Of a stretch of DNA of 64,000 bases, positions 38,725-39,153 are shown one piece after another. How positions within the stretch are numbered: position 1 is the first letter of the stretch; each line of letters opens with the position of its first letter. Both the position numbers and the translations under genes were made by a program. The notes under the pieces are model-generated. The model did no database searches. It was not told the origin of the DNA and saw nothing but the letters and a program-made list of their open reading frames with translations. This stretch comes from a virus, in UHGV virus genome UHGV-0300374; one strand, given 5' to 3'.

Positions 38725-39153
38725 AGAAAAATTTTAAAAATATTTTTAGCAAAACTGTAATGAAACGGGCGCACACGACTACCACAAAACAGAACACAAA
38801 TCAAGAATTATTTTTCAATCCGCTACAAATTTTTCTCTTGACTTTTGGGGAGAGGGGGAGTAAGAGGGGGAGAGGGGTTGGTCTGGCTCTATATAAAAAC
38901 CTACCTGCACGATTCTAAAATGATTTTTCTTGCCCGACCTGAGCGGGGTCTGCACGTTTTGAAAATGAAAAAGCCCTTTGGAGATTACCTGCACAATTTG
39001 AAAATGAATTTTCTCTTTGGAGTTCAAAATTTTCTCTACAGATTTCTCTATAGAAATATACCTGCACAATTCTGAAATGAAAAAGCCCTCCTTACCTGAA
39101 AAATTTACCAGATAAGAAAGGCTTAACCTATTGTGAATATTCTACAGAGTTTC
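38725..39153. repeat. noncoding repeat region: G-run tract plus about four direct copies of a 22-nt motif
   Basis: GGGGagaGGGGGagtaagaGGGGGagaGGGG at 38847-38877; tacctgcacRattcNRaaatga at 38902, 38996, 39059 and a partial copy near 38950. Confidence 0.55.

Follow-up and report, generated by a model that had tools for sequence, protein, structure and literature searches.

Introduction

The origin of lambda (ori) carries iterons, T4 oriE combines an early promoter with short direct repeats, and the primary origin of T7 consists of tandem promoters with an A/T-rich stretch. Arrays of type III antitoxin RNA are also known, with ToxI and the pseudo-ToxI of phage phiTE as examples, and T4-type phages have promoter-early stem-loop (PeSL) cassettes. 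The injection stop signal of T5 is a region in the 10-kb terminal repeat with inverted repeats and paired DnaA boxes (bioRxiv 10.1101/866236). Here, a repeat array in a 64,000-nucleotide stretch of the virus genome UHGV-0300374 (the window) is compared with these systems. The array lies in a gene-free gap of 520 bp (38634-39153), between a macro-domain gene and an array of small genes, both on the minus strand. In Felix O1-like phages, this gap serves as a control region that is non-coding, conserved and confined to phages. For the array itself we tentatively favour, with a probability of about 0.3, iteron-like sites for protein binding; the unique cis site that they form would most likely be an origin of replication activated by transcription.

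The window represents a Felix O1-like myovirus of the genus Felixounavirus (Ounavirinae). A 1.8-kb query around the region returned 243 phage records, headed by LF110P2, LMP33/25 and UAB_Phi87 at 97-98% identity, and the cluster of 26 tRNAs typical of Felix O1-like phages is present in the window. With about 90% of the genome coding (PMC3185647), gene-free stretches such as the 520-bp gap are very few.

The Repeat Array

Scanning with the repeat consensus ACCTGCACRATTYNRAAATGA gave matches without mismatch at 38903, 38987 and 39060 and one with three mismatches at 38948, all on the plus strand. The core box is written ACCTGCAC-N7-AAATGA. Four boxes thus lie within 180 bp on one strand, while 0.05 matches are expected by chance per window. 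A preliminary description of this DNA, made from the letters alone, had placed repeats at 38902, 39059 and about 38950, which is right within 1-2 nt, and another at 38996, which should be 38987.

The array consists of four plus-strand units that resemble each other at 71-79% over 34 nt. Unit 1 (38903-38947, 45 bp) carries the box CTGCAC-GATTCTA-AAATGA at 38905-38923, and its tail ATTTTTCTTGCCCGACC is also kept in the Erwinia phage phiEa104. Unit 2 (38948-38986, 39 bp) has the box CTGCAC-GTTTTGA-AAATGA at 38950-38968, followed by a conserved TTTGGAG tail. The same tail occurs in unit 3 (38987-39059, 73 bp; box at 38989-39007), which ends in a degenerate half unit without a box (39026-39059). 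The final, short unit 4 (39060-39082), with CTGCAC-AATTCTG-AAATGA at 39062-39080, runs into a terminator.

In the complete genome of UAB_Phi87 (87 kb), TGCAC-N7-AAATGA occurs exactly four times, all in this region, against 0.14 expected. A box confined to one genome site marks a unique cis site and not a general class of promoters or operators, and the latter assignment was rejected on this ground. Unbiased alignments of the relatives show constant half-sites, CTGCAC and AAATGA, around a variable A/T-rich centre, as expected of a bipartite protein site. Across 78 distinct unit instances the centre is variable within the limits of RWWTYKR; the invariant TGCAC and AAAT of this set are partly a product of the search pattern, which itself fixed them.

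The boxes were previously thought to echo the initiation motif of the cassette genes, i.e., the genes of the small-gene array. With at most one mismatch, the 11-mer ATTCTAAAATG occurs 13 times in the window (3.3 expected). Nine copies are on the minus strand, directly at start codons of minus-strand genes, and two belong to the plus-strand repeats, at 38912 without mismatch and at 39069 with one. The common initiation region of the cassette genes is CTAAAYTGGAGATTCTAAAATG, and repeat copy 1 equals it with GGAG changed to GCAC and one additional base. The echo is therefore real for copy 1, but the parts conserved across relatives are CTGCAC and AAATGA and not ATTCT. A minus-strand transcript that pairs antisense with the cassette initiation regions was also considered and rejected, the box centre showing no co-variation with the initiation regions of other genera.

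Conservation Across Relatives

The 520-bp gap matches 290 phage records, 238 of which cover at least 80% of it. The matches in Mooglevirus are 73-78% identical, and a 100-bp piece across the boxes reaches ~73% in Erwinia and Hafnia phages of Kolesnikvirus, while the neighbouring macro protein is merely 64-66% identical in Mooglevirus. Boxes were found in every aligned lineage, with position and orientation unchanged. The array adjoins the macro-domain gene in Felixounavirus, Mooglevirus and Kolesnikvirus and also in an uncultivated 88-kb phage; DNA similarity elsewhere fades. The spacings 45/39/73, 45/41/75, 45/39/77, 45/75, 39/75 and 39/37/37 were observed, corresponding to 3-4 units; only wV8 (EU877232) lacks 2 nt immediately ahead of box 2 (window 38947-38949), which shortens unit 1 to 43 bp. 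The uncultivated phage, IMGVR_UViG_3300045988_063805 (88,375 bp), has five boxes beside a Tk.4-like macro gene. A comparison of repeat number among relatives, as the preliminary description had advised, accordingly reveals an array of 3-5 units that is neither lost nor non-repetitive in them.

Apart from its Tk.4-like macro gene, the uncultivated contig has no DNA relative among GenBank phages. About 11 TGTTAA repeats lie beside its boxes, with an adjoining Dam methylase and repeated terminator-type leaders of its own, and a 55-nt overlap between the two ends of the contig stems from assembly.

Searches of IMG/VR and metagenomes with the box pattern found the array solely in Ounavirinae-like contigs, the other matches being unrelated coding or CRISPR-like repeats. 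No enterobacterial match was obtained among 185,579 species genomes, and none in plasmids or in 5,426 Escherichia coli genomes. The lack of a host array makes it less likely that the phage imitates type III antitoxins or CRISPR repeats, and a host repeat-array mimic was rejected. A literature search turned up no paper on the boxes; they are absent from three genome papers (PMC3185647, PMC2674420, PMC4837284) and from the features annotated in GenBank for wV8, Felix O1, Mordin, phiEa104, phiEa21-4, ASO1B and Pr103Blw.

The cassettes to the left of the array vary while the units stay. The region adjoins this hypervariable cassette array, and parts of the units resemble pieces of leaders and terminators, as neutral debris from recombination between cassette leaders would. 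That explanation is nevertheless scarcely credible in view of position-by-position conservation across genera at the level of coding DNA, with units that stay where their left neighbours differ. The notion of a cassette-insertion scar likewise had to be given up: the units are orthologous in position and sequence across Felixounavirus, Mooglevirus and, partly, Kolesnikvirus.

A Candidate Replication Origin

Read together, a one-strand array of bipartite boxes that is unique in the genome, shared by several genera, lacking a host counterpart and placed beside easily melted DNA and divergent promoters would be the mark of one cis-acting nucleoprotein site. The favoured reading takes the boxes as iteron-like sites for one sequence-specific protein, which would mark the single cis-acting start site of DNA replication of the phage. 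This predicted protein is probably phage-encoded, because the array has no host counterpart. Once bound, it would act together with transcription from the adjoining promoters to open a stretch of 92% A+T, at which the helicase-primase would be loaded or an RNA primer supplied. For genomes with a G-rich allele (see below), the G-rich non-template strand could in addition stabilise an R-loop, although it would be dispensable. The proposed logic parallels that of T4 oriE, the T7 primary origin and lambda ori.

An origin was ranked first because every phage needs one, because few gene-free stretches are available here and because the layout is like those of T4 oriE, T7 and lambda. As in these, a unique gene-free site carries direct repeats in the same orientation, with a very A/T-rich stretch and promoters adjoining. 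The array has what defines iterons, namely at least three direct repeats of one motif in the same orientation, unique in the genome, and it has the A/T-rich stretch of an iteron origin (38726-38750, 92% A+T) at a distance of ~150 bp.

Several points weigh against this reading. Pfam did not find an initiator gene candidate among 10 neighbouring proteins, of which the small ones match no Pfam family, and no break in GC/AT skew was seen at the region beyond the effect of gene orientation. The spacings (45/39/73, 45/41/75, 39/37/37 and 45/75) are without helical phasing. Conservation extends to the tails between the boxes (TTTGGAG and ATTTTTCTTGCC-GACC), beyond what simple iterons need. The plus-strand promoter-like site (P_R, see below) lacks the key final T of its -10 in the window allele. 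Phages with a T7-like helicase-primase replisome can, moreover, use promoter-only origins. Compared with the known phage origins, the units are ~40 bp with conserved tails and not iterons of 12-20 bp, their spacing is unphased, and the site is neither within nor beside a replication gene; the origin role is here deduced from sequence.

Promoters, Terminator and Leader

As the preliminary description had it, the region separates the macro-domain gene from the leader-cassette array. The former (39154-39939, minus strand; 261 aa, Pfam Macro) lies upstream of the gap and is labelled 'phosphatase', T4 Tk.4-like, in records of relatives. It ends a transcription unit running from rIIA. The intrinsic terminator of this unit (39083-39124, minus strand) comprises a 17-pair stem and a T-run, with a U-tract that overlaps the last box, and is annotated in the records of wV8, KhF3 and ASO1B. 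CG to GC exchanges in other lineages are compensatory changes within the stem. The terminator acts only on the minus strand, because its G-U pairs turn into A-C mismatches on the plus strand.

Downstream of the gap, the small-gene array begins with a minus-strand gene at 38633-38250 and carries repeated leaders. Its promoter P_L (38697-38750, minus strand) is of the sigma-70 type, TTGACT-17-TAGTAT (38725-38697), preceded by the 25-bp upstream element of 92% A+T at 38726-38750. P_L is annotated as a promoter in ASO1B, and both hexamers are kept in all lineages. The 5' leader of the first gene (38634-38690, minus strand) contains a hairpin (38666-38686), the Shine-Dalgarno sequence GGAG (38645-38642) and ATTCAAAAATG, and equals the wV8 repeat DR_6.

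About 110 bp from P_L and back to back with it, the promoter-like site P_R (38838-38866, plus strand; TTGACT-17-TAAGAG) points away from the cassette array. The upstream halves of the two mirror each other as an inverted repeat, I2 (38717-38731/38832-38846). P_R has a good -35 and upstream A/T DNA, and the -10 is defective in the window allele, where the final T is absent. Its -35 TTGACT is invariant and the block 38783-38846 is nearly invariant across genera. The -10 is a TG-extended TAGCCT in the alternative allele of the neighbouring segment (see below) and TAATAG or TAGTCG in several lineages. The same-strand counterpart in phiEa104, TTGACC-18-TATACT, is canonical.

The earlier suggestion of a regulatory hub survives in these features: a covarying terminator, a conserved sigma-70 promoter with an AT-rich element, a mirror promoter-like site and cross-genus boxes unique in the genome. 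They also bear on a serious though doubtful alternative to an origin, in which the boxes are an operator or insulator array that binds a phage regulator of transcription and not of replication. Such a regulator might keep transcripts of the macro operon from running on into P_L, suppress antisense transcripts that start at P_R, or set the time at which the host-takeover cassette operon is turned off. The array marks where two transcription units meet, with a terminator on one side and a divergent promoter pair on the other. The promoter elements are as conserved as the boxes, and the bipartite box with its variable centre would suit an operator. However, the boxes are 180-360 bp from the P_L -35 and do not overlap a promoter, and a protein controlling early genes should also have sites at the other cassette promoters, while the box is found nowhere else in the genome. 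An operator thus fits the position as well as an origin does and the genome-wide uniqueness less well.

P_R raises a further serious possibility, though one that we consider rather doubtful, that the array is transcribed from it as a largely unstructured plus-strand non-coding RNA with tandem units of ~40 nt. This RNA might serve as a decoy or sponge, its units resembling the phage initiation region with GGAG changed to GCAC, or as an antisense to the 3' end of the macro mRNA. In all lineages, a promoter-like site precedes the units on their own strand; that of phiEa104 is canonical, and that of the alternative allele is TG-extended. The 5' sequence GGGGCTGGCT directly past P_R is kept between genera. 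Entire units are conserved beyond the boxes, their sizes of 37-45 nt are like those of processed repeat RNAs such as ToxI, and copy 1 is identical to the cassette initiation 11-mer. On the other hand, the P_R -10 is TAAGAG, TAATAG or TAGTCG in several lineages, a scan of the region for a plus-strand terminator found none, the box centre does not follow the initiation regions of Mooglevirus or Kolesnikvirus, and no similar array was found in bacteria, plasmids or E. coli genomes.

A known RNA family or a structured RNA was rejected. With Rfam 15, only tRNAs reach the gathering score in the window, and the best E-value in the region is 0.73, far below the gathering score. The fold z-scores of the region are -0.3 and -0.5, and the alignment of the lineages holds no conserved RNA structure and no covarying pairs apart from the terminator. 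The repeat-derived small RNAs that the preliminary description had envisaged may be made, yet they would have neither an Rfam match nor a conserved structure. The resemblance to ToxI goes as far as a promoter followed by tandem units that run into a terminator hairpin, here that of the macro gene and active on the opposite strand only, with units of 37-45 nt that carry an A-rich AAAU site. In contrast to ToxI, the units share merely 21-34 nt (71-79% identity) and are not near-identical, no toxin gene follows (downstream is the antisense of the macro gene), and neither a bacterial array nor an Rfam family matches.

Two side observations were made on phiEa104. The 37-bp units of Kolesnikvirus (phiEa104 locus 1525-1590, plus strand) put TTGCCA 17 bp before TAAAAT or GAAAAT of the next box, and the array thus holds two consensus-grade sigma-70 promoters. 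The homologous TTGCCC of Felixounavirus is 25 bp off and cannot serve as a promoter -35; tandem sigma-70 promoters inside the units, which fit the consensus for two phiEa104 units and do not fit in Felixounavirus, were rejected. Furthermore, an ATG stands exactly 7 nt past the -10 in two unrelated versions of P_R, TATACT-ATTTCAC-ATG in phiEa104 and TAGCCT-TGTGAGA-ATG in the alternative allele. This spacing is the geometry of leaderless mRNA, and the open reading frames (ORFs) that follow are wholly different (8 aa vs 66 aa; phiEa104 locus 1291-1320).

The small-gene array (32129-38633, minus strand) has two interchangeable leader types, both ending in CTAAAYTGGAGATTCTAAAATG. One consists of the promoter TTGACA-17-TAAATT with a GGGGAGGG...CCCC hairpin, the other is the 57-bp hairpin repeat described for Felix O1. 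Among relatives the array varies through inserted stretches of additional cassettes, 0.5-3.7 kb long. Like the PeSL cassettes, this adjoining array is hypervariable and has repeated promoter/hairpin leaders for each gene. The likeness concerns the array to the left of the boxes; the box region, unlike it, is stable and without those leaders.

Coding Potential

The non-coding status that the preliminary description had assigned to 38725-39153 is supported by codon-phase and substitution tests, the true gap being larger, 38634-39153. It is conserved at the level of coding DNA, yet without a codon signal. Variable columns are distributed over the codon phases as 9/8/11 in the region, as against 9/2/4 at the 3' end of the macro gene. 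In the best plus-strand frame, 26 distinct sequences have 20 synonymous and 47 nonsynonymous changes and 2 stops, no better than in wrong frames. An earlier small sample had given 9 synonymous to 11 nonsynonymous changes, a hint of coding that is gone in the 26-sequence set. Indels of 2 and 4 nt break the frames in wV8, Mooglevirus and Kolesnikvirus, and different genera use different frames. Protein-coding function on either strand was rejected on the absent codon phase, the nonsynonymous excess in every frame and these frame-breaking indels.

A small plus-strand protein (51-76 aa, in the frame of ATG 38920) or nested peptides are highly improbable for the same reasons: the third-position excess seen in the macro gene is absent, and CTG-CAC and AAA are without synonymous variation in the 78 units, a set that was picked by a pattern fixing TGCAC and AAAT. 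Its attractions were ORFs of 62-76 aa that are open on the plus strand in most lineages and annotated in some records (e.g., Mordin gp014, Phi87_49/50 and Felix O1 ORF31), many inter-unit spacings divisible by 3, the small-sample substitution counts, and the leaderless geometry of the ATG past the -10 in the alternative allele and phiEa104. The repeat-derived peptides envisaged earlier find no support, as codon phase is lacking, nonsynonymous changes prevail and the frames are broken in relatives. Annotation of the stretch is inconsistent among GenBank records, and the missing coding signal casts doubt on the hypothetical ORFs that they place on either strand; wV8 'gene 13' and Felix O1 ORFs 31-34, drawn over the units in both orientations, are unlikely to be genes.

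The G-Rich Tract and Its Alternative Allele

To the left of the boxes, the polymorphic segment ~38847-38899 begins with the four-run G tract GGGGAGAGGGGGAGTAAGAGGGGGAGAGGGG (38847-38877, plus strand). Prediction of G-quadruplexes (G4) bears out the canonical four-run motif reported for it. It is the sole G3+N1-7 four-run motif on both strands of the 64-kb window, with a G4Hunter score of 2.36-2.45 (~2.4), the next best site in the window scoring 1.52. First-order Markov simulations of the window contained any such motif in 15 of 300 cases (5%).

In place of 38847-38899, 140 GenBank records have an unrelated 53-bp allele that is not G-rich, vs 34 records with the window-type tract. The fourth G run is lost in some genomes of the G allele, and a weaker G-rich tract was found in Mooglevirus and Kolesnikvirus. 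Since the tract is swapped for an unrelated allele in most relatives, it is not required for the role of the region; it is an optional variant, which might modulate P_R or favour an R-loop, and not a fixed feature. A functional core made of the tract itself, as a G-quadruplex or G-rich R-loop switch on the spacer and -10 of P_R, is for this reason very unlikely, although the tract is by far the strongest G4 candidate in the window, lies exactly between the P_R -35 and the start site, has its weaker counterparts in the two other genera and coincides with breaks in assemblies.

Several assemblies, IMGVR_UViG_3300045988_009833, MK482690, MT446388 and others, end in the G tract or within ~50 nt of it, and one such contig finishes with a Nextera adapter fused inside the tract. 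Such breaks suggest that the G-rich allele drops out during sequencing or assembly, or that the assembly graph forks where the two alleles part. They are no more than a hint of quadruplex folding.

Terminal Repeats and DNA Entry

The gap was also considered as a direct terminal repeat or pac site and rejected, because the 581-bp repeat annotated in Pr103Blw corresponds to window 31063-31663, 7 kb off. Exact terminal repeats of ~600 bp are known in Felix O1-like phages (PMC4837284, PMC8303462), and the published SpeI end fragments of UAB_Phi87 agree with a terminal repeat at 31063-31663. The terminal repeat (89.6% identity to that of Pr103Blw) lies in a 1.7-kb ORF-free gap (30440-32128) with ~25 copies of YTAACAR/YTGTTAR, to which the TGTTAA repeats next to the boxes of the uncultivated 88-kb contig are similar. 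The UAB_Phi87 record JN225449.1 shows a 543-bp overlap of its start and end, inside the tRNA region, while, judged by the terminal SpeI fragments in the literature (4322 and 2819 bp), the ends fall within the SpeI fragment 13014-19582 of 6568 bp. The ends of the record misfit these fragments and are thus assembly ends and not physical ends.

The distance of the array from this terminal repeat evokes the stop signal of T5, which lies at 7.9% of the genome in a repeat region that is conserved, non-coding and furnished with DnaA boxes (bioRxiv 10.1101/866236). By analogy, the array would be a DNA-entry checkpoint where the first 7-8% of the genome ends on its inner side: the terminal ~7-8%, with terminal repeat and host-takeover cassettes, would enter first, followed by a pause or handover at the protein-bound array, i.e., T5-like two-step delivery outside the T5 group. 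Both the checkpoint and this course of entry are most improbable, yet the parallels are several. Both regions are conserved, untranslated and repetitive, better kept than the small early genes beside them, and both lie ~8% in from a genome end and border host-takeover genes. The physical terminal repeat at 31063-31663 is next to small early genes, and in Pr103Blw the region is 6.4-6.9 kb (7.3-7.9% of the genome) from the right end, i.e., at the position expected of a checkpoint. A Kolesnikvirus contig also has a repeat-rich end region ~7 kb from the units, and Kolesnikvirus boxes begin with YTATGCACR, one mismatch from a DnaA box.

Against it stands that two-step transfer is known in T5-like siphoviruses only and that the distance to the end changes with cassette content. 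The terminal repeat here is 0.6 kb and ~6-7 kb away, so that the region is outside any long terminal repeat, and the repeats are direct. The window boxes (ACCTGCAC) miss 3-4 of the nine positions of a DnaA box; no TTWTNCACA is present in 38634-39153, and an assignment as DnaA boxes was rejected.

Implications

The temporal regulation of Felix O1 was described as not understood in its genome paper (PMC3185647), and Felix O1-like phages serve in Salmonella typing, as reporter phages and in cocktails for therapy and biocontrol. The gap would represent a newly recognised repeat-bearing control or origin region of a known general type. With it, one short, unique and deeply conserved non-coding site with a defined box of 19-21 bp is pinned down. 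The site is a concrete target for origin mapping and for pull-down of the binding protein. For engineering of these phages, it is a site to leave intact, or a candidate cis element for replicons.

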